Numbered from the stretch's first letter, positions 9,619-20,000 are shown. The stretch: 20,000 bases of DNA from an uncultured virus (IMG/VR IMGVR_UViG_3300032222_000250) (IMGVR_UViG_3300032222_000250); one strand, 5' to 3'. Notes: generated by a model from the letters alone, not told the origin. Numbers and translations: made by a program.

Positions 9619-10016
9619 GTACACCATCTCACTATGAAAAGGCTGAGACTAAATTCAGTTTGCTACCTTACGCAAGTAATGTAGGGTCACCAGTCATTGT
9701 TGTTGAAGACACAGACCAATTTAAAAGAAAACAAGTTACCAAGTTTAATAATTTTGTTGATAAGAGATTTAGTGAATTAAAATCTGAAATGGAAAAGTTG
9801 GTTGACGCTTATAAACTCAATGAATTTATCTTTAGTATTGACCTTAGGTTTGAGCCAATAGTGGGTGAAACTTATTATGTGTATCAGAATGAAAAAACTA
9901 TTAATTTTTTATCAATGATAGCTCCACATGAATGTAAATTTTTGTATATTTGTAGTGTTAAACTAAATACTGAAGGTCAATGGGTTTTAATAGACGGTAC
10001 TTTTCCAAAGAGTTAA
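9615..10016 (+). CDS. DUF2452-like protein
   Basis: 'LPYASNVGSPVI' and 'FEPIVGETYYVY...LSMIAP.E' motifs recalled for DUF2452. Confidence 0.65.
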   Translation: MSTPSHYEKAETKFSLLPYASNVGSPVIVVEDTDQFKRKQVTKFNNFVDKRFSELKSEMEKLVDAYKLNEFIFSIDLRFEPIVGETYYVYQNEKTINFLSMIAPHECKFLYICSVKLNTEGQWVLIDGTFPKS

Positions 10017-10192
10017 TTTTACGTGAGATAGACAAAGAATATCCACTAAAAAAGTATTTCGCTTCTGACGCTTGTATATTTACAGATAGTGTGTCCCATC
10101 AAGCATATGAATTACATAATAAAGGTGTTTCTGACAAAGAAATAAAAGAATTTATTTTAAAAAACTCAACACCCTTGATTGAACAAAATTAA
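9980..10192 (+). CDS. Hypothetical protein (MGFNRRY)
   Basis: 70 aa ORF overlapping the upstream stop and filling the gap. Confidence 0.7.
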   Translation: MGFNRRYFSKELILREIDKEYPLKKYFASDACIFTDSVSHQAYELHNKGVSDKEIKEFILKNSTPLIEQN

Positions 10193-10210
10193 AAACATAT
10201 ATTTTATACT

Positions 10211-10447
10211 ATGAAAACACTAAAAAATTCCAAGACAGGTGAAATCAAAAGATTACACGACAAAGCCGCTCACAATTTAGTAATGCAAACTTTCTTGGGT
10301 TGGGGATATGCTCCCAAATCCGAATGGAAAAAAGATAAGTCTGTGGTAACTGAAGAAAGGCCGGATAAACAGACAAAAAAATCTAAAGATGAAGGACAAA
10401 AAAGTGTGTCTTACGGAAAAGGAAGTTCTAGAAAATCCAAACGATAA
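10211..10447 (+). CDS. Hypothetical basic protein
   Basis: 78 aa ORF with K/R-rich tail; degenerate TTG-N20-TATATTTT promoter upstream. Confidence 0.75.
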   Translation: MKTLKNSKTGEIKRLHDKAAHNLVMQTFLGWGYAPKSEWKKDKSVVTEERPDKQTKKSKDEGQKSVSYGKGSSRKSKR

Positions 10448-11341: not shown

Positions 11342-12213
11342 TGGAAAATTTTATAGGAAAAGTAGTAAACGGTGATTGTCGTGAAGTGATGAAAACTATG
11401 GAAGAGGGTTGTGTTGACCTGATTGTAACCAGTCCTCCATATGGAGTTGGAATTGCTTATGATGTTCACGATGATGATATGTTGATTGAAGAGTATTTGA
11501 AGTTCACTGAAGAGTGGATGACCGAAGCGTTCAGAGTGTTGAAAGATGATGGTCGTATCGCAATTAACATTCCATATGAAATCAACCGTCAAGCAAAAGG
11601 TGGTCGTGTATTCATGGTGAGTGAAGTGTGGCAAATCATGAAAAAGATTGGTTATAAGTTCTTTGGGGTTGTTGACCTTGAAGAAGAATCACCACACAGG
11701 AGCAGAACAACCGCATGGGGTTCTTGGATGTCTCCATCAGCACCATACATCTATAACCCAAAAGAGTGTGTTATATTGGCTTACAAGAAGAAACACATTA
11801 AAATTGTCAAGGGAGTTCCTGAATGGGTTGGTGAAATGGGTGAGGTTGAAGATAAGAACGGTGTGATGAAGAACAAAATGATGTATACCGAAACCCAAAA
11901 ACGTGAGTTTATTGATTTGGTGTTTGGTCAATGGCATTACTTTGCCGATACAAAAAGTATGACCAAAGCAACATTTTCAATGGACATACCAACCAAAGCA
12001 ATTAAGATTCTTACCTATAAGAATGATGTTGTTTTGGACCCGTTTGCTGGTAGTGGAACTAGTTTAGTTGCAGCTGAAACTTTGGACCGTAGATGGATTG
12101 GTATTGAACTCAGTCCCAATTATGCTGAGGTTGCCAAGAAACGAGTCAACGTATTTGTTGAAGGTAGACGACAACAAGTAATAAATTTTGAAGAAACTAC
12201 AACCCTCACTTAA
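11341..12213 (+). CDS. Orphan DNA methyltransferase, N4-C/N6-A family, beta class
   Basis: LIVTSPPY (motif IV) N-terminal and VLDPFAGSGT (motif I) C-terminal. SPPY suggests m4C. Confidence 0.92.
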   Translation: MENFIGKVVNGDCREVMKTMEEGCVDLIVTSPPYGVGIAYDVHDDDMLIEEYLKFTEEWMTEAFRVLKDDGRIAINIPYEINRQAKGGRVFMVSEVWQIMKKIGYKFFGVVDLEEESPHRSRTTAWGSWMSPSAPYIYNPKECVILAYKKKHIKIVKGVPEWVGEMGEVEDKNGVMKNKMMYTETQKREFIDLVFGQWHYFADTKSMTKATFSMDIPTKAIKILTYKNDVVLDPFAGSGTSLVAAETLDRRWIGIELSPNYAEVAKKRVNVFVEGRRQQVINFEETTTLT

Positions 12214-13418: not shown

Positions 13419-14821
13419 TGAAAAAATTAATTAAAGAATCGGGATTACGTGATATTAAAGCTTTGGCTAAAAGATATCCAAAAGCTAAAATATATTTTCA
13501 CCAAGATTTAGATGGTGTTACAACAGCAATTGCAATGAAGAAATACTTGGAGGATAACGGTATCAATGTAGTTGATTCGGAAATCATTCAATATGGTGAT
13601 AAAGAATTCTCAGTTAAAAAACTTGATGCTAATGGTGACACAATGCCAGTTCTTGTTGACTTTGCACATGGTAAACCAATGTTCGTTATTCATACTGACC
13701 ACCACGATAGACAAGCAGGTGCTGAAGAAACAGGTGCAACATCATTCAGACCATCACGTTCAAATGTGGAAACAATATCACAAGTGGTATCACCAAAAGA
13801 AATATTCCCTGAAAAAGACTTAAGGTTAATTTCAACGGTAGATTCTGCTGATTATGCAAAATATGATATTACACCTGAACAGGTAATGAATTATATTTTT
13901 AAACTTGATAAAGATAAAAATTTATTACAAAACAAATTTGCAATGGGATTGGTTTTAAACAAACTAATCTTGGCATTTAAGAATAAGCCGGGCTTTATGG
14001 AAAATTTGGTAATCAATTCTGAACCATCTTTATATTCAATCTTAATGCAAGTTAAGAAAGAAATGGGTGAAAGAAGATTACCAAGTCCTGAAACGTTAGA
14101 CAAGAATAAATCAGAGTATGTTAAACAAATGGAAACATCACCAAACGTCAAGGTGATTGATAACATTATTGTACAATATGGGGGAGGTAGTATGTTCAGT
14201 CCTGGTTCATACGATAGATACACACCATTTAAGAACAACCCTGAAGCGGACTTCTTGGTAATTGCTTGGCCACTTGGATTACTACAAGCATCATGTAATC
14301 CATTTAAAAAGGAACGAGAACTTAAAGGGGTTAACTTGGGAGATATTGCTCAAGAAGTGTTAGAAAAACACGAAAACCAACTTAAAAGTAGAATTGTTCC
14401 ATTATCAACTATCAAATATATATCTGAAGGTTCCATAGGACCAGAGTCTGTTGGATTTACATTTAAAGATTTTAAAGCTCTTTATGGTGATAAATTCAGT
14501 GGAATGGAGAATGGCGATGCGTATTTGAAGATAATTGAAAAGTTGATGGATAAACCCACAAAAGACTTAACTGATAAGGAATTTGAAATCCTTGACAAGT
14601 TTGGTGTTAGTGCGTGGGATTTAATCCAAGCCAATTCAGGGGGACATAAATGTATTACAAACATTTCAGGTATTAACTATCTTGGTAGAAGTAATAGACC
14701 TCCAAGTGGTCAATACAGATATGACCCTGAAAAAAGCGGAGCTGCATACATTAATGTATTGAAGAAGTTACAAAGTGAATTTGTGAACAAACTTCAAGAA
14801 AAGATTAACGAGAGTAAGTAA
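13418..14821 (+). CDS. DHH-family phosphoesterase
   Basis: Motifs YFHQDLDG, VLVDF, TDHH, 'VDSAD' and C-terminal SGGH (DHHA1-like). Confidence 0.82.
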   Translation: MKKLIKESGLRDIKALAKRYPKAKIYFHQDLDGVTTAIAMKKYLEDNGINVVDSEIIQYGDKEFSVKKLDANGDTMPVLVDFAHGKPMFVIHTDHHDRQAGAEETGATSFRPSRSNVETISQVVSPKEIFPEKDLRLISTVDSADYAKYDITPEQVMNYIFKLDKDKNLLQNKFAMGLVLNKLILAFKNKPGFMENLVINSEPSLYSILMQVKKEMGERRLPSPETLDKNKSEYVKQMETSPNVKVIDNIIVQYGGGSMFSPGSYDRYTPFKNNPEADFLVIAWPLGLLQASCNPFKKERELKGVNLGDIAQEVLEKHENQLKSRIVPLSTIKYISEGSIGPESVGFTFKDFKALYGDKFSGMENGDAYLKIIEKLMDKPTKDLTDKEFEILDKFGVSAWDLIQANSGGHKCITNISGINYLGRSNRPPSGQYRYDPEKSGAAYINVLKKLQSEFVNKLQEKINESK

Positions 14822-15365
14822 CCCAATTCTTTTTGTAGTTCTTGTTTGATGAGCAATAACTTGCGTACTCATTAACTATTGGACTACCAGTGTTATAACC
14901 ACCACATGATAGTGCCCAACTATGGTAGGTGTTGTATCTGGCTCTCAACATCTTCATACTCACCATTACATTCAATTCAATGTTTCTTGTAAGTTCTTTT
15001 TGACTAACATGTCTACCAGCATAAGGGTGTGCGTACTTTGTGATGATTTGCATTGGACCCACAGCGTTTGCATATGATACTTGGTATGGGTTATAAGACC
15101 AATGAAATGGTCCTTGATAATGTGTTTCCCTGTAAGCCACGTTGTAAGCAACGTATTTAGGTACACGATACATCTTAGAGTATTTCTCAATTGAGTTATA
15201 CATCCTCAGACATACTGGAGATGTAGGTTCAGAACCTAACATCTCCAAATAGTCTTCCTCTGCTTGTTCTTGTATTTTTTCAATACTGTAGATTGCCGCT
15301 CCAAGAGCTCCAAATATTACAAAGAACCAAAGGAATATTGCGGTTTTAAAATCTACATTTTTCAT
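14805..15365 (-). CDS. Lytic transglycosylase (SLT domain) with N-terminal membrane anchor
   Basis: Catalytic 'AYRET', 'AVGPMQI', 'NIELNV', 'GGYNTG' motifs; hydrophobic helix at about residues 9-27. Confidence 0.85.
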   Translation of the reverse strand: MKNVDFKTAIFLWFFVIFGALGAAIYSIEKIQEQAEEDYLEMLGSEPTSPVCLRMYNSIEKYSKMYRVPKYVAYNVAYRETHYQGPFHWSYNPYQVSYANAVGPMQIITKYAHPYAGRHVSQKELTRNIELNVMVSMKMLRARYNTYHSWALSCGGYNTGSPIVNEYASYCSSNKNYKKNWVTYSR

Positions 15366-15367
15366 AA

Positions 15368-15715
15368 TTATTTTACAGGTGGTGTTTGGTTTGGATTGTG
15401 TTGACCCCAGATGTTACGAGCATAAAGGGTGAAGATAGTTTTACCAATCTCATTATCATAGATGGTGTAGTTCCCGGTATTTTTATCAATCAACATAAGT
15501 CTTTGATTTTCGTCAACCGCCAAGATGATGTCTTGTTTTTCTACTACTACCATTTTTGATGGCATTTCAACGGTCTTAATTTGTTTATAGTAGAACCCTA
15601 CTCCAAATCCTATGCCAAGTCCGCCAAGTACTAATACAACCCAAAAAACGTGACTAAAGAACTTCTTAATTTGTTCTGATGCTTTTGTCCAATAAACTTT
15701 CAATTTGTTTTCCAT
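15368..15715 (-). CDS. Single-pass membrane protein
   Basis: TM segment VFWVVLVLGGLGIGFGVGFYY. Start reassigned to MENKLK (15715) from the promoter position. Confidence 0.8.
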   Translation of the reverse strand: MENKLKVYWTKASEQIKKFFSHVFWVVLVLGGLGIGFGVGFYYKQIKTVEMPSKMVVVEKQDIILAVDENQRLMLIDKNTGNYTIYDNEIGKTIFTLYARNIWGQHNPNQTPPVK

Positions 15716-15719
15716 AACC

Positions 15720-15751
15720 CAAAGGTATGGCAAAAATTAAAGATAATCAAC
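15720..15751 (-). promoter_or_regulatory. Bacteroidetes-type promoter (GTTG-N20-TACCTTTG)
   Basis: Minus strand GTTG 15751-15748, TACCTTTG 15727-15720, ATG 4 nt later. Confidence 0.7.
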
Positions 15752-16081
15752 CCTGTCTCCGATTTTGATACCAAGACTCCTGCATGTATTGGCAGGCAGT
15801 TCCAATACAAAACCACCGTCACCTTCATATGTTTCACATTCTTCTGTATCACATGGTGGGCAGTTAGGGGAAATATCATTAATAATATTTTTTTTGATAA
15901 AGACAATATCAAGGGGAACAACACAATTTTTCATCCAAAAACTCTGTGTTGTATCTTCAGGCATTACAAATAACATCCCATCAAAGTTACTGAAACTCTG
16001 ACCCATCATACCCAAACGAATTTTTTCGGGTGTAGATACCACTTTACAATTAAATTTATTATTATTAATGGAAATATACAT
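15737..16081 (-). CDS. DUF192 family protein
   Basis: 'GMMG...GMLF...FWMKNC..PLDIVFI...VLEL...GIKIGD' DUF192 signature. Start at MYISINN avoids overlap with the NUDIX gene. Confidence 0.88.
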   Translation of the reverse strand: MYISINNNKFNCKVVSTPEKIRLGMMGQSFSNFDGMLFVMPEDTTQSFWMKNCVVPLDIVFIKKNIINDISPNCPPCDTEECETYEGDGGFVLELPANTCRSLGIKIGDRVDYL

Positions 16082-16100
16082 ATAGTGATAAATATAAGAT

Positions 16101-16508
16101 ATGAAGAAATCAGCCGGAGTAATTGTTAAATGGGACAATAAATGTCTTTTATGTAAAAGGAGTAATGTTGAAACTTATTCAGGGGAATGGAGTATTCCTG
16201 GTGGTAAGGTAGAACCTGATGAGGACATTATAGATGCTGCTCATCGTGAGTTCTATGAAGAAACAGATAAGAAACTAACGGGGGATTTGGAATTCCTTGG
16301 GGTTATGGGTAGAATGAACCGTAAGGGAACCAAACAATCATCTATAATGTATGTGTTTACAACTAATGTGGATGAACCAATACATCCTGACTTGGAAAAT
16401 GCTGAGTACGGGGAAGAACATTCAGAGTGTGGATACTTTTCAATTGATGATTTGCCTGAACCAATCGGTGAAAATTTAATGGAATATTTAAAAAATGTTC
16501 TAAAATGA
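16101..16508 (+). CDS. NUDIX hydrolase
   Basis: Nudix box GGKVEPDEDIIDAAHREFYEET. Confidence 0.92.
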   Translation: MKKSAGVIVKWDNKCLLCKRSNVETYSGEWSIPGGKVEPDEDIIDAAHREFYEETDKKLTGDLEFLGVMGRMNRKGTKQSSIMYVFTTNVDEPIHPDLENAEYGEEHSECGYFSIDDLPEPIGENLMEYLKNVLK

Positions 16509-16598
16509 TTTGACAACTGAAAAAAAGTTGTTATGTTTTTATAACTTTGGTAAATAGGAATATATTTATTACTTACCAAATAAAAAAAACAAAGTTTA

Positions 16599-16630
16599 TT
16601 TGACAGTTTGAAAAAATAGTCTTAACTTTG
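16599..16630 (+). promoter_or_regulatory. Bacteroidetes-type promoter (TTTG-N20-TAACTTTG) for the large ncRNA
   Basis: TTTG 16599-16602, TAACTTTG 16623-16630, A-tract upstream; no ORF downstream. Confidence 0.8.
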
Positions 16631-16638
16631 TGAAACAA

Positions 16639-16670
16639 TTGAGAATAACATCTCAAAACGTTCTTTGAAA
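16639..16670 (+). promoter_or_regulatory. boxB-like hairpin plus boxA-like antitermination element
   Basis: TTGAGA-ATAACA-TCTCAA hairpin (16639-16656), then GTTCTTTGAAA (16660-16670), matching the boxA seen in bacterial rRNA leaders. Confidence 0.6.
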
Positions 16671-16671
16671 C

Positions 16672-17460
16672 GCCAACTTCACCCCCTTAAATGAAGTTTG
16701 GTTTGTATCTTCGGCGGTTTAGCGTCGATTAAGATAACCCCGGTAACGGGACTATAGGGAGGAAAAGTTTCAACGGCTTAATACTTCGGTGTCACGAAAG
16801 TGGCTCACAACTAAACAAATTACCTACAGATAAATTCTCATGGGCGACAGCTGAGAGAAAGTATCTATTCTGACTACGTGAGTGTCAGGGTTGAGATGGA
16901 GACATCAATAGGAATAGGTAAAGGTGATGGTTCGACTCAGACGCCAATCTGATGTAGGGCTAGGTACCAGTTTATCATAGGTGTCCAAAGAGCAATCTAA
17001 CGACATCAAGATAAATCGTAGTCTTGGCGGATTACAGAAGGTTGAGTGGTATTTCCTTCTTCAAAAGAGAAGCTAGCCACCTCAGAGCTCAACCTTCATA
17101 GACTCACAATGTTGAATTCTCGTTGATAGAAGAATCAAGATAAAAAGGAGAAGTCTCTGAGCGATTGAACTGAAAGTCACCTAATTCCTTGGGTAGAAAT
17201 ACCAACGAGGAAATTGACAGGACCCCAAGTCCTTCAGTTTTGACTAAGAAAGTCCTAGTACCTGGGCACGGGTTTAGAGAGTCCGCAAGATTCTATAGAG
17301 GCAAGTAGTAGTTGAGTAGGTTTAATCGAAACGTGTGATTGTCGTAAACAATCGGTGATGACTTGATACTTGTGGCAACACGAGTGGACACGAGAGGAAA
17401 CCTTGGTCGGTATAATCTCTACAAAAGACAGGTCAACGAAACATGTAGTCTCAATGTTTT
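16672..17460 (+). ncRNA. Large structured non-coding RNA (~800 nt), GOLLD-like candidate
   Basis: No ORF of 60 aa or more on either strand; GC visibly above the flanks; many GNRA/UUCG-capped hairpins on the + strand; long-range 10-bp helix 17037-17046/17088-17097; bounded by a promoter and a terminator. The family assignment rests on size, context and recalled motifs only. Confidence 0.8.
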
Positions 17461-17494
17461 AGCCAACCTCACATAGGATAGTATCCTATGTCCG

Positions 17495-17529
17495 ACCCCG
17501 AATGAGAAATTGTTCGGGGTTTCTTGTTT
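17495..17529 (+). terminator. Rho-independent terminator of the ncRNA transcript
   Basis: ACCCCGAATGA-GAAA-TTGTTCGGGGT then TTCTTGTTT; preceded by the palindrome ACATAGGATA-G-TATCCTATGT (17471-17491). Confidence 0.8.
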
Positions 17530-17554
17530 ATATGGATTTTTATTACTATATTTG
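17523..17554 (+). promoter_or_regulatory. Bacteroidetes-type promoter (CTTG-N20-TATATTTG)
   Basis: TATATTTG 17547-17554, ATG 4 nt later. Confidence 0.68.
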
Positions 17555-17558
17555 ACTT

Positions 17559-18128
17559 ATGAAAGAACAAGATGTGGTAATCGATTATAAACAAATTGCT
17601 GAAAATCGAGCAAAAAATAAAAACCAAGTCGAAGATGGTTTATGTTTTGATAATTTTTTGGCAGCATGTTATGTTAAATGTTCATCACAATCTTATGGTC
17701 CAAAAATTGAAAAACGGATTATTGATGAATATGGGTTTGAAAAAATACCATCTAAAAAAGGTGAAGGAGATTTGTTATCGTCAAAAATAACTTCATTTCC
17801 GGGTTTTAATTTTGGAGAAGGAAAAAAAACAGAATTAAAAGTTTCGTATTTGTCATCAAACAAATCGTGGAATTTAATTCAAATTAGACCATATGAAAAT
17901 TTTGATTTTTATGTTTTTTTACTTATAAATCCTTATGATGGTTGTAAATTTGAATGGTTCATTCTTAAAAAAGAAGACGTAAACCATAATAATTTTAAGA
18001 TGAATTCAATTCACGGAACAAAAAAGAGTAATTTAGAAAATAAAAACATTGAGTATAAAATAAATGCTACAATTGGTAGTGATAATTATAATAAACTAAA
18101 AGAACTTAATTTAATTAAAAATGTATAA
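17559..18128 (+). CDS. Putative type II restriction endonuclease (PD-(D/E)XK fold)
   Basis: 'GPKIEKRI...GEGDLL...TELKVS...QIRP' fits an E...D...ExK nuclease pattern; overlaps an MTase by 8 bp. Confidence 0.6.
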   Translation: MKEQDVVIDYKQIAENRAKNKNQVEDGLCFDNFLAACYVKCSSQSYGPKIEKRIIDEYGFEKIPSKKGEGDLLSSKITSFPGFNFGEGKKTELKVSYLSSNKSWNLIQIRPYENFDFYVFLLINPYDGCKFEWFILKKEDVNHNNFKMNSIHGTKKSNLENKNIEYKINATIGSDNYNKLKELNLIKNV

Positions 18129-18903
18129 CGTATTAAATGTAAATTTTTTTGACGAAATAAAAAATGTTGAAAGTGACTCTATAGATTTAATTTTGACCGA
18201 CCCACCATATGGTATATCGCACAGTGATGGTTTTATAAAACAGTCTAAAAATAGTAAAGCAAAGACCCACACAATTATTGGGGATAATCCAAATGATTTA
18301 GATTGGGACATTATTTTATCAGAATTTTATAGAGTGTTAAAACCAAATAAAATGTGTTATATTTTTGGAAGAACTGATATGTTTATAAGAATTGGTCAAA
18401 ACATAATCAATTCAAAACTTAAATATTGTCATGATTTTATTTGGAGAAAGGGTGATATGAATTATGGTAACTTAGGTATTATGGGTAATATACATGAAAT
18501 GTGTATAGGTCTTGCTAAAGGTAATCCTGAAAAATCCAGACCTTTATTGATAAATGGTGAAGAAAAAAAAAGATATAAAGCAGAATATTCTGGTAAAGTT
18601 TCAAGTAAAGAGTATTATGGACATCCTACCCAAAAACCAATCGGACTATTAAGTTATATAATATTGGGTAGAACTGATGTTGGTGATTTAATATTTGACC
18701 CATTTGTTGGTGCTGGGTCTACAAATATTGCTTGTGAGATAACAGGACGAAATTCATTATCATTTGAATTAGACCAAACATTTTATGATTTGACATTGAA
18801 ACGAATAAATGATGAGGAACACATGAAGATGTGTAGAAAACAAATTGAAGGTGGTTTGGTATATTCTGAGTGTGGTTTATTATCGTTTAATAAATTTGTG
18901 TAA
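18121..18903 (+). CDS. DNA methyltransferase, N6-A/N4-C family, beta class
   Basis: LILTDPPY, HPTQKP and IFDPFVGAGS motifs. Confidence 0.92.
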   Translation: MYNVLNVNFFDEIKNVESDSIDLILTDPPYGISHSDGFIKQSKNSKAKTHTIIGDNPNDLDWDIILSEFYRVLKPNKMCYIFGRTDMFIRIGQNIINSKLKYCHDFIWRKGDMNYGNLGIMGNIHEMCIGLAKGNPEKSRPLLINGEEKKRYKAEYSGKVSSKEYYGHPTQKPIGLLSYIILGRTDVGDLIFDPFVGAGSTNIACEITGRNSLSFELDQTFYDLTLKRINDEEHMKMCRKQIEGGLVYSECGLLSFNKFV

Positions 18904-18913
18904 ATGATTATAT

Positions 18914-18941
18914 AACCCCAATCACAAGTTGGGGTTTTTTT
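18914..18941 (+). terminator. Rho-independent terminator
   Basis: AACCCCAA-TCACAAG-TTGGGGTT plus T-run. Confidence 0.82.
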
Positions 18942-18943
18942 AA

Positions 18944-18951
18944 TATATTTG
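18944..18951 (+). promoter_or_regulatory. Bacteroidetes-type -7 element TATATTTG
   Basis: ATG 18956 lies 4 nt downstream; no clear -33 box at consensus spacing. Confidence 0.55.
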
Positions 18952-18955
18952 TATC

Positions 18956-19480
18956 ATGGACTTATCATATAAAGAAAAAGGTAAAGATGTAAGACATAGT
19001 CCTTTAAAACATTATGTTACGGGTGATGGAACGTCAGTTGCCATCTATCAAGGTTTTCGTGGGGAAAATCCTGATTTAGATTTTATTGTTAAATACAAAA
19101 CGCCAGGTCAAAGATTACGAACACCAAGTCACACACATTGGATTGTGGACTTATTGGTTAAGTGTGAATACAGTAAGCAAATTGTTGGTGAGTATGTTCA
19201 AACTATGTTGGACTATTATGATAGTACTGAACCATTTAGTACTGTTGAAGAAAGAAACAATTACGAGTTATCTTTATACCCAACTTTTGATTATGATAGT
19301 TTGAACCAACATGGGTATTATTCTGTTGAAACATTAACGGCATTTATTGAGTTGTTTACCAAATGTGAAAAACAAACCACAGATGCGTTTATGTTTAAGA
19401 CGTTACTTGAATTGGTAAAAGATTATTGTGACGGTAAGAAAGATTTTTATCAGGTAGTTGGATATTCAAAGAGAGTTTAG
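18956..19480 (+). CDS. Hypothetical protein (RTPSHTHW motif)
   Basis: 174 aa ORF with its own promoter element. Confidence 0.8.
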   Translation: MDLSYKEKGKDVRHSPLKHYVTGDGTSVAIYQGFRGENPDLDFIVKYKTPGQRLRTPSHTHWIVDLLVKCEYSKQIVGEYVQTMLDYYDSTEPFSTVEERNNYELSLYPTFDYDSLNQHGYYSVETLTAFIELFTKCEKQTTDAFMFKTLLELVKDYCDGKKDFYQVVGYSKRV

Positions 19481-19488
19481 TATCTTTG
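19457..19488 (+). promoter_or_regulatory. Bacteroidetes-type promoter (GTTG-N20-TATCTTTG)
   Basis: GTTG 19457-19460, TATCTTTG 19481-19488, ATG 19493. Confidence 0.7.
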
Positions 19489-19492
19489 TGAT

Positions 19493-20000
19493 ATGAAATT
19501 CCCAATGGCCATATTAGATGACTACACAAAAAGGGGTTTGTTGTTCAAACAGACACACCGTAGTTTGCCATTATCCATATGGAACTATACACCGAACGTT
19601 CAGTACGGTGACTTGTGGGACGATGTTACATTGTCATGTCGTGGATTGGTTACAGATAACAGAGGTAATGTAATTGCCCGACCATTCAAAAAGTTCTTCA
19701 ACATAGAGGAGAACAAACACGTACCAACATCTGACTTTGAGGTCTTTGAAAAGATGGACGGTTCTTTGGGAATCATGTTCAAGTACAATGGTGAGATGAT
19801 ATGTGCCACTCGTGGTTCATTTACTTCAGACCAATCAAAGTGGATGACCGACTTTGCTATGAAGTACAACTACCAAGACATCATTGTTGAAGGGTACACT
19901 TATTTGTTTGAGATAATCTATCCTGAGAATAGAATCGTGGTTGATTACAACGGTGAGGAGCGTTTGGTATTACTTGGTATAATCAACACTGAGACTGGTG
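19493..20000 (+). CDS. T4 Rnl1-like RNA ligase (3' truncated); not in the ORF track
   Basis: Manual translation MKFPMAILDD...IWNYT...CRGLV...IARPFKKFFN...FEKMDGSLG...ATRGSF...YLFEIIYPENRIVVDY. KxDGS is nucleotidyltransferase motif I. Confidence 0.9.
   Translation, partial: MKFPMAILDDYTKRGLLFKQTHRSLPLSIWNYTPNVQYGDLWDDVTLSCRGLVTDNRGNVIARPFKKFFNIEENKHVPTSDFEVFEKMDGSLGIMFKYNGEMICATRGSFTSDQSKWMTDFAMKYNYQDIIVEGYTYLFEIIYPENRIVVDYNGEERLVLLGIINTETG

Follow-up and report, generated by a model that had tools for sequence, protein, structure and literature searches.

A probable GOLLD RNA gene in a partial genome of a freshwater jumbo phage with Bacteroidota-type promoters

A 20,000-nucleotide (nt) stretch of DNA from an uncultured virus (IMG/VR IMGVR_UViG_3300032222_000250), hereafter the window, contains a long gene-free segment. 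Positions 16635 to ~17525 of its plus strand very probably constitute one GOLLD RNA gene, carried by a fragment of a freshwater jumbo phage with Bacteroidota-type promoters. The segment had been singled out by a reading of the sequence alone (the sequence-only reading), which took it to encode either an RNA resembling GOLLD or a large RNA of a new class, equipped with its own promoter and terminator.

The gene-free, GC-rich and strongly folding character of the segment is real and specific to the plus strand. Open reading frames (ORFs) of at least 40 amino acids number 92 in the window, and none lies inside 16580–17468; those that border the gap are on the minus strand (16253–16579 and 17469–17627). 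The GC content is 0.410–0.425 across 16600–17399 versus 0.315–0.372 upstream (14000–16599) and 0.223–0.338 downstream (17600–19399). ORF count and composition therefore agree with the earlier description of about 0.85 kb of ORF-free, GC-richer DNA. The choice of strand was also correct. The plus strand of 16635–17525 folds at −269.3 kcal/mol (shuffle mean −229.8, z −6.46, 20 shuffles), whereas the minus strand reaches −228.4 kcal/mol (z −1.87), and several invariant pairs are G-U.

The RNA matches a known family along the full length of its model. We searched the whole window with cmscan against 4227 Rfam families, applying gathering scores, and obtained a single match: GOLLD (RF02032) at 17037–17457 on the plus strand, with 298.1 bits (gathering score 150) and an E-value of 8.7e-85. 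The match spans model positions 1–416 of 416, is not truncated, and is recovered in the contig record too (298 bits). ROOL (RF03087), OLE, RNase P, tmRNA and group I/II introns have no gathering-score match in the window. This is one of the checks that the sequence-only reading had suggested; it confirms the RNA, settles the choice between the two proposals in favour of GOLLD and lowers the novelty of the find. A new large-RNA class unrelated to GOLLD, or membership of one of the other families just named, has nothing in its favour beyond size and an ornate fold. With GOLLD as the sole family at gathering score we regard that explanation as refuted, and give it almost no credence.

RF02032 models only the conserved 3′ half of GOLLD, so the 5′ domain is to be expected in the ~400 nt that precede 17037. 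The locus has the two-domain layout of the family, which measures 700–900 nt in total: a variable 5′ domain of ~400 nt, a linker and a conserved 3′ domain. The coordinates of these and all other features are collected in Table 1.

Table 1. Features of the GOLLD locus and its neighbours (window coordinates)
Feature	Position	Strand	Basis and remarks
−33 element (TTTG), Bacteroidota-type sigma-A promoter	16599–16602	+	putative function
−7 box TAACTTTG (consensus TAnnTTTG)	16623–16630	+	conserved in relatives
GOLLD RNA gene, predicted primary transcript ~891 nt	16635–17525	+	start from promoter, end from terminator; mature ends may differ
Variable 5′ domain	16635–17036	+	homologous along full length to relatives (nhmmer)
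5′-terminal hairpin (6 bp, 6-nt loop)	16639–16656	+	minimum-energy fold; stem varies on both sides
Long-range pairing, 5 pairs	16878–16882 with 17103–17107	+	5′-domain hairpin loop to 5′ flank of linker
Loop–loop pairing, 6 pairs	16942–16947 with 17024–17029	+	within 5′ domain
Conserved 3′ domain	17037–17457	+	RF02032, model 1–416
Long-range pairing, 7 pairs	17081–17087 with 17155–17161	+	internal loop of first 3′-domain hairpin to 3′ flank of linker
A-rich variable linker, without tRNA	17108–17154	+	unpaired, low-confidence part of Rfam alignment; no tRNA by ARAGORN
Pseudoknot, 6 pairs	17176–17181 with 17354–17359	+	3′ domain
Extra 3′ hairpin (9 bp, 3-nt loop)	17471–17491	+	minimum-energy fold; beyond the family's last hairpin; outside Rfam model
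Intrinsic terminator: 12-pair stem 17494–17521, then T-rich tail	17494–17531	+	terminator scan and minimum-energy fold
NUDIX hydrolase gene, upstream neighbour	16101–16508	+	Pfam PF00293, E 8.9e-21; PHROG 1198; no RNA contigs
T4 Rnl1-type RNA ligase gene, cut by window end	19493–19999	+	Pfam PF09511, E 1.4e-16; PHROG 562, E 8.5e-48

Relatives of the RNA were found only among uncultured viral contigs, not among GenBank phages: blastn ('distant' mode) of 16500–17560 against 50,697 GenBank phage records gave no match. A motif search with the 3′ domain returned 119 loci, among which a single-sequence nhmmer query recognized eight full-length relatives and one with the 3′ domain only; the remaining loci may be chance matches or GOLLDs too distant for the query. 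The conserved promoter box together with the 5′ end of the RNA, used as a search pattern, yielded at least 120 IMG/VR loci, and an invariant 14-mer of the 5′ domain retrieved the window's own clade. Alignment A2 comprises 43 sequences of the wider subfamily (nine near-identical sequences, at least 97%, were dropped; the outlier L183, with a 746-nt spacing, was excluded; L201 and L146 were added by hand). Alignment A3 comprises 22 non-redundant sequences of the window's clade (15 of 36 full-length matches were dropped as at least 96% identical; L266 is 5′-truncated). The homology of the 5′ domain is to these uncultured relatives only.

Both domains are conserved as folds. RNAalifold gave 212 pairs in 34 helices for A3, and 95.4% of the alignment cells in these pairs form standard pairs, versus 32.3–43% with the partners slid by 1–3 columns. 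As many as 110 pairs are altered on both sides (16–35 when slid), and none of 500 shuffles matched the observed pairing values. Scoring the structure on the same alignment from which it was derived biases these figures in its favour; nevertheless, the gap to the slid controls and the compensatory count stay large despite this circularity. Helices 2 to 17 make up the 5′ domain and most contain pairs altered on both sides, so the 5′ half is also a conserved fold. Helices 18 to 34 form the 3′ domain, with such pairs in 15 of 17. One of its helices, 17162–17171/17319–17328, is present in the Rfam model as well and covaries at 10 of 10 pairs in the 43 relatives of A2. The 5′-terminal stem reads UUGAGA/UCUCAA in the window and AUCGGA/UCCGAU or CAGGA/UCCUG in relatives. 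The search for covariation among homologues, another of the proposed checks, thus came out positive: the 5′ domain and the four long-range pairings described below are kept by compensatory changes in relatives.

Eight helices had been picked out beforehand by eye from the single sequence, and all eight strings are found where they were placed. Six are backed by covariation: the hairpins 16739–16750, 16791–16804, 16895–16906 and 17368–17385, the hairpin 17192–17203, which is the tip of a covarying 9-pair helix (17186–17194/17201–17211), and the multibranch-closing helix 17037–17046/17088–17097. The other two are genuine inverted repeats but not conserved pairings. In ATAC-TTCG-GTGT (16781–16792), the TTCG proposed as a loop is a strand of helix 16758–16761/16784–16787, in a register read by eye with the window one base off the alignment columns; the adjoining columns 252–255/282–285 were counted at 92% of cells paired in A3. 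In AACTGAA/TTCAGTT (17168/17233), the first strand belongs to 17162–17171, which pairs with 17319–17328.

A scan for non-nested covarying runs revealed four long-range pairings. Pooled over 24 pairs in A3, they are 99.4% paired versus 34–43% when slid, and 16 of the 24 pairs are altered on both sides. Three of the four hold in A2 (98.7–100%). The pairing between the 5′-domain hairpin loop and the 5′ flank of the linker is formed in 99.1% of cells in A3, with four pairs altered on both sides, and in 100% in A2. That between the first 3′-domain hairpin and the 3′ flank of the linker stands at 100% in A3 (four altered on both sides) and 98.7% in A2 (six altered). The pseudoknot of the 3′ domain is 100% paired in both alignments, with four and five pairs, respectively, altered on both sides. 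The loop–loop pairing within the 5′ domain has 98.5% and four doubly altered pairs in A3, but only 55.1% in A2; either only the clade has it, or A2 is misaligned at this point. Judged from sequence, the first two pairings are predicted to anchor the linker on both sides, its 5′ flank to the 5′ domain and its 3′ flank to the first 3′-domain hairpin. Several such pairings are described as inter-chain bridges in solved GOLLDs (PMC12286853, PMC12990946), and those of the window would be compatible with contacts either within one chain or between chains.

These pairings also bear on whether the segment holds one RNA or two, namely an independent folded RNA of ~400 nt (16635–17036) followed by a GOLLD made of the 3′ domain only (17037–17457). 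A division at 17037 would suit the Rfam model, which represents the 3′ half alone, and a 3′ domain by itself is reported to form a decamer (PMC12990946). However, the loop at 16878–16882 covaries with 17103–17107, inside the Rfam-matched part; the one conserved promoter lies before 16635, and no terminator-like site occurs in 16635–17036; RNA contigs of four runs bridge 17037; and the published description of the family includes both regions, the 5′ one variable and the 3′ one conserved (PMC12286853). We consider two separate RNAs very unlikely.

The single GOLLD RNA is preceded by a promoter of Bacteroidota type. Relatives share a TTG, a spacer of ~20 nt and TAnnTTTG directly before the RNA. 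In A2 the TA and TTTG of the −7 box are invariant (TTTG was in the A2 search pattern, TA was not), and the TTG at −33 spacing is invariant or nearly so across the 43 relatives. The box is seen also in alignments A1 and A3, and the TTG is present, by eye, in many of the 22 sequences of A3. The members of A3 were picked by an internal RNA motif, and the conservation of the promoter among them is therefore independent of selection. Promoters of Bacteroidota sigma-A have TAnnTTTG as their −7 box, which in Flavobacterium psychrophilum is reported to occupy −12 to −5 (PMC9723704). Placing the box of the window at these positions, with its G at 16630, predicts a start at A16635, five bases past the box. 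We infer that the host sigma-A polymerase starts there. The predicted start coincides with the coordinate given by the sequence-only reading, and the conserved box substantiates its claim of a dedicated promoter. Scans of the window as a whole say less: a sigma-70 promoter scan was uninformative (8 sites versus 7.5 expected), and TAnnTTTG alone is not enriched (40 versus 33 expected), so that only its placement is informative.

Two further features of these boxes deserve mention. A second TAACTTTG box stands at 16542–16549, 81 nt upstream of the main box (within 16509–16549, plus strand); a perfect TTGACA at 16510 is too distant from it for the usual spacing. This second box could act as a weak promoter ahead of the main one, or be left over from a duplication. 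Separately, the pattern TAnnTTTG-N4-ATG occurs five times in the window versus 0.73 expected, a count that none of 200 shuffles reached. The sites are 2093–2107, 17547–17561, 18944–18958 and 19481–19495 on the plus strand and 15713–15727 on the minus strand. At four of the sites the ATG opens a long ORF (at 2105, 17559, 18956 and 19493), and the fifth ATG is in frame, 18 nt inside an ORF starting at 15733 on the minus strand. With the box at −12 to −5, the five mRNAs would be leaderless; the predicted leaderless share is far above the 5.5% reported for F. psychrophilum.

At the 3′ end, transcription is expected to stop at the terminator. Its stem and T-run are found at the same place in relatives (A2 and A3), and the claim that the RNA has a terminator of its own is borne out at 17494–17521. 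The position of this element matters for a different explanation of the segment, as the 5′ leader or regulatory element of ORF 17559–18128, which lies on the same strand 34 nt downstream, or as a decayed protein gene. The terminator intervenes between the RNA and that ORF; the ORF has its own TAnnTTTG box, spaced for a leaderless start; five relatives have the RNA but not this ORF; and the metatranscriptome contigs stop before it. Moreover, substitutions in the segment preserve base pairs, not a reading frame. A leader or a decayed gene is thus barely credible.

The GOLLD RNA is present in environmental RNA. Fourteen DNA runs share at least half of the sampled words with the window: nine from lake water or freshwater, one from drinking water and four (one study) labelled 'metagenome'. 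Six metatranscriptome runs share 40–48%. We mapped the contigs of four metatranscriptome runs (four studies) on 16200–17900, bearing in mind that assembled contigs give no starts, ends, strand or level. They cover ~16698–17437 in all four runs, with thin cover from 16599 in one; contig depths add up to hundreds, and in one of the runs to thousands. One 668-nt contig spans 16698–17356 and so crosses the domain boundary. Over 16200–16541 (part of the NUDIX gene) and 17511–17900 (part of the downstream ORF) the four runs have zero cover, which argues against DNA carry-over. The metatranscriptomes therefore answer a further one of the proposed checks, with contigs over the RNA and not over the flanking genes. 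Cover confined to the RNA in such libraries fits a highly abundant, stable RNA.

The contigs do not reach the predicted ends. They begin near 16698–16710, not at 16635, and most end near 17431–17437, not at the terminator, with little cover ahead of ~16700 and none past ~17460; the cause may be a shorter mature RNA or contig breaks where strains differ. Contig ends at about 16700 and 17435 therefore hint only weakly at processing. In the processed form, the mature RNA would be a core of ~735 nt (~16700–17437) from which the 5′ leader, the last hairpin, the extra hairpin and the terminator had been trimmed. Such a core would match contig starts at 16698–16730 in three runs and ends at 17431–17437 in three runs, sequencing-adapter letters at the loose contig ends 16708 and 17431, and low depth in 16599–16712 and 17454–17510. 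Yet assembled contigs break at strain differences, and 16670–16711 is the most variable part of the RNA. Moreover, the 5′ hairpin and the block 16660–16668 are conserved, the family's last hairpin (17440–17458) is part of the conserved Rfam model, and one run reaches 16599. We judge a trimmed core possible but unlikely, and retain the transcript from promoter to terminator as the preferred description.

The window RNA has a short 5′ domain. Counted from 16660 it measures 377 nt, whereas the median is 423 nt for the window's clade and 479.5 nt for the wider subfamily, and it is the shortest among the complete sequences compared. The linker-bearing stretch (17098–17154) is 57 nt long in the window and 45–74 nt in relatives. 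The extra 3′ hairpin is kept in the four closest relatives, three with a differing stem and one identical (by eye on A3).

The gene belongs to a phage, probably a large one. The window lies on the minus strand of a 74,295-bp IMG/VR viral contig, and neighbouring genes match phage protein families. CheckV estimates the completeness of this contig at 25%, and five large relatives are viral contigs of 233–297 kb (78–99% complete), figures that support the earlier label of jumbo phage. Each of the five has exactly one GOLLD, at 273–320 bits.

A host in the phylum Bacteroidota, also proposed by the sequence-only reading, fares less evenly. The conserved promoter type and the five leaderless ORF starts speak for it; the evidence from a metagenome-assembled genome (MAG) is weak. 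Among 185,579 species genomes the sole member is a 4.7-kb contig binned into a 'Bacteroidetes' MAG, itself weak evidence of a host. The promoter and 5′-end pattern occurs at 47 places in this genome collection, one of which is a GOLLD by nhmmer profile. In 151 sampled genomes of the phylum of the MAG, RF02032 matched the MAG alone, and the other 150 were without a match, a sample too limited to prove absence. Promoter type, leaderless starts and the MAG contig thus point to a Bacteroidota host, in part weakly.

This GOLLD lineage is remote from tRNA genes. ARAGORN found no tRNA or tmRNA in the window, in keeping with the earlier remark that no tRNA gene was visible nearby. A tRNA lies within the locus in 3 of 60 relatives, in each case a tRNA-Met just downstream of GOLLD, and in the five large relatives the nearest tRNA or tRNA array is 5.5–68 kb away. 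This distance makes a tRNA-centred function less likely for the lineage. The three tRNA-Met genes follow GOLLD within a few bases (L161 332–405, L162 342–415 and L193 353–425, all on the minus strand). A short AGCC motif stands after the last GOLLD hairpin in the window (17459–17466), in L162, in L193 and in several relatives without a tRNA (by eye, A2); it could be a signal for RNA processing, or what is left of such a signal. Elsewhere in the 74-kb contig (G001), beyond the window, the tRNA model matches weakly (30–40 bits, 84–123 nt) at 9869–9980, 10185–10307 and 11640–11723, matches confirmed neither by ARAGORN nor at the cmscan gathering score. Either these are spurious or they mark tRNA-like elements that contain long insertions, and the contig has no confirmed tRNA.

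Among the neighbouring genes, the T4 Rnl1-type RNA ligase lies 2 kb downstream of the RNA in the window. An RNA ligase of this type is ~3 kb from GOLLD in two of the five large relatives (G002 157955–158479 and G005 203933–204457) and absent from the other three, a proximity that links GOLLD only loosely to RNA repair. Between the RNA and the ligase gene is an AT-rich cassette (17559–18903, plus strand, GC 0.22–0.30) that encodes an unknown 189-residue ORF and an N6/N4 DNA methyltransferase. None of the five large relatives, all of which keep GOLLD, has a match to the 189-residue protein. The cassette has the look of DNA inserted recently, and may be an orphan methylase module or one resembling restriction-modification systems.

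What might this RNA build? The env-38 GOLLD (833 nt) forms a 14-chain cage with D7 symmetry (Kretsch et al. 2025, PMC12286853; PDB 9MEE as listed in PMC12990946), in which the 5′ regions are described as caps, the 3′ regions as rings, and the linker as disordered inside the cage (PMC12286853). The 700-nt GOLLD of S. agalactiae forms a 12-chain cage, and its 3′ domain alone mainly a 10-mer (PDB 9L0R and 9LMF; PMC12990946). That RNA is reported to be without several consensus helices, and loss of cap helices to alter the number of chains, not cage formation (PMC12990946). By analogy, copies of the window RNA would assemble without protein into a closed cage of roughly 10 to 14 chains, with the 3′ domains forming two rings, the 5′ domains forming caps and the A-rich linker pointing inward. 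The short 5′ domain (377 nt) would make a different chain number plausible. Published ideas on function include the enclosure of tRNAs, ribosomes or other molecules (PMC12286853, PMC12990946). We suggest, as a speculation more likely wrong than right, that the cage acts in lytic growth by binding or enclosing some component of the machinery for translation or RNA repair (ribosomes, tRNAs or tRNA fragments), and so sustains phage protein synthesis.

Besides the contig ends discussed above, several considerations weigh against this account. The cage is known from other GOLLDs only, with chain numbers that vary from one solved member to another. No complete sequence compared has a shorter 5′ domain than the window, so its cap could be altered. 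The host phylum rests on the promoter type and one short MAG-binned contig, and the tRNA neighbourhood usual, though not obligatory, for GOLLD is missing.

Earlier publications have described the GOLLD family, how it folds and how its cages are built, and our find is mainly a correct annotation. Within the literature searched, judged by titles and not covering the founding paper of 2009, we found no paper tying a GOLLD RNA to Bacteroid* and none treating GOLLD in jumbo phages. It is a serious possibility, though one we would put at somewhat below even, that freshwater jumbo phages with Bacteroidota-type promoters carry a GOLLD lineage of their own: solitary, driven by a strong promoter of host type, tens of kb from the tRNA array, and forming a series of cap deletions in which the window is the shortest member. 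If so, GOLLD would function independently of neighbouring tRNAs, and the short-cap form would have a chain number other than 14 or be trimmed to the ~735-nt core. Through the present analysis, large freshwater phages with Bacteroidota-type promoters emerge as carriers of an abundant GOLLD lineage (at least 120 IMG/VR loci), and the variable 5′ domain and the four long-range pairings are mapped with the backing of covariation. The RNA is not tied to tRNA genes in this lineage, which argues against a purely tRNA-centred function. The natural cap-length variants could be used to probe how cap helices set the number of chains.

Of the GOLLDs with solved structures, env-38 resembles the window RNA in its two-domain layout, variable 5′ half, A-rich linker, length (~0.8–0.9 kb), phage origin and full-length match to the 3′-domain model. 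Both come from aquatic metagenomes; most DNA runs sharing the window are from lakes or other freshwater. Unlike env-38, which is reported to lie downstream of a Met-tRNA (PMC12286853), the window has no tRNA beside the RNA or in the linker; it also has the extra 3′ hairpin. The 5′ domain of the window is ~100 nt below the median of its own subfamily. In this respect the S. agalactiae GOLLD, with its trimmed 5′ domain, is the closest analogy for the short cap. It differs in its setting, a Firmicutes chromosome or prophage, whereas the window comes from a Bacteroidota-type jumbo phage. The GOLLDs of Mycobacterium and Mycolicibacterium lie in tRNA arrays, some with a tRNA-Phe in the linker (Morgado et al. 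2020, as cited in PMC12990946); members of the same family, they contrast with the window's lineage, in which a single GOLLD stands 5.5–68 kb from the tRNA array. Finally, ROOL (RF03087) has in common with GOLLD its large size, its ornate structure, its association with phages and its assembly into cages made of RNA only (PMC12286853, PMC5737381), but its sequence and fold are unrelated to those of the window RNA.

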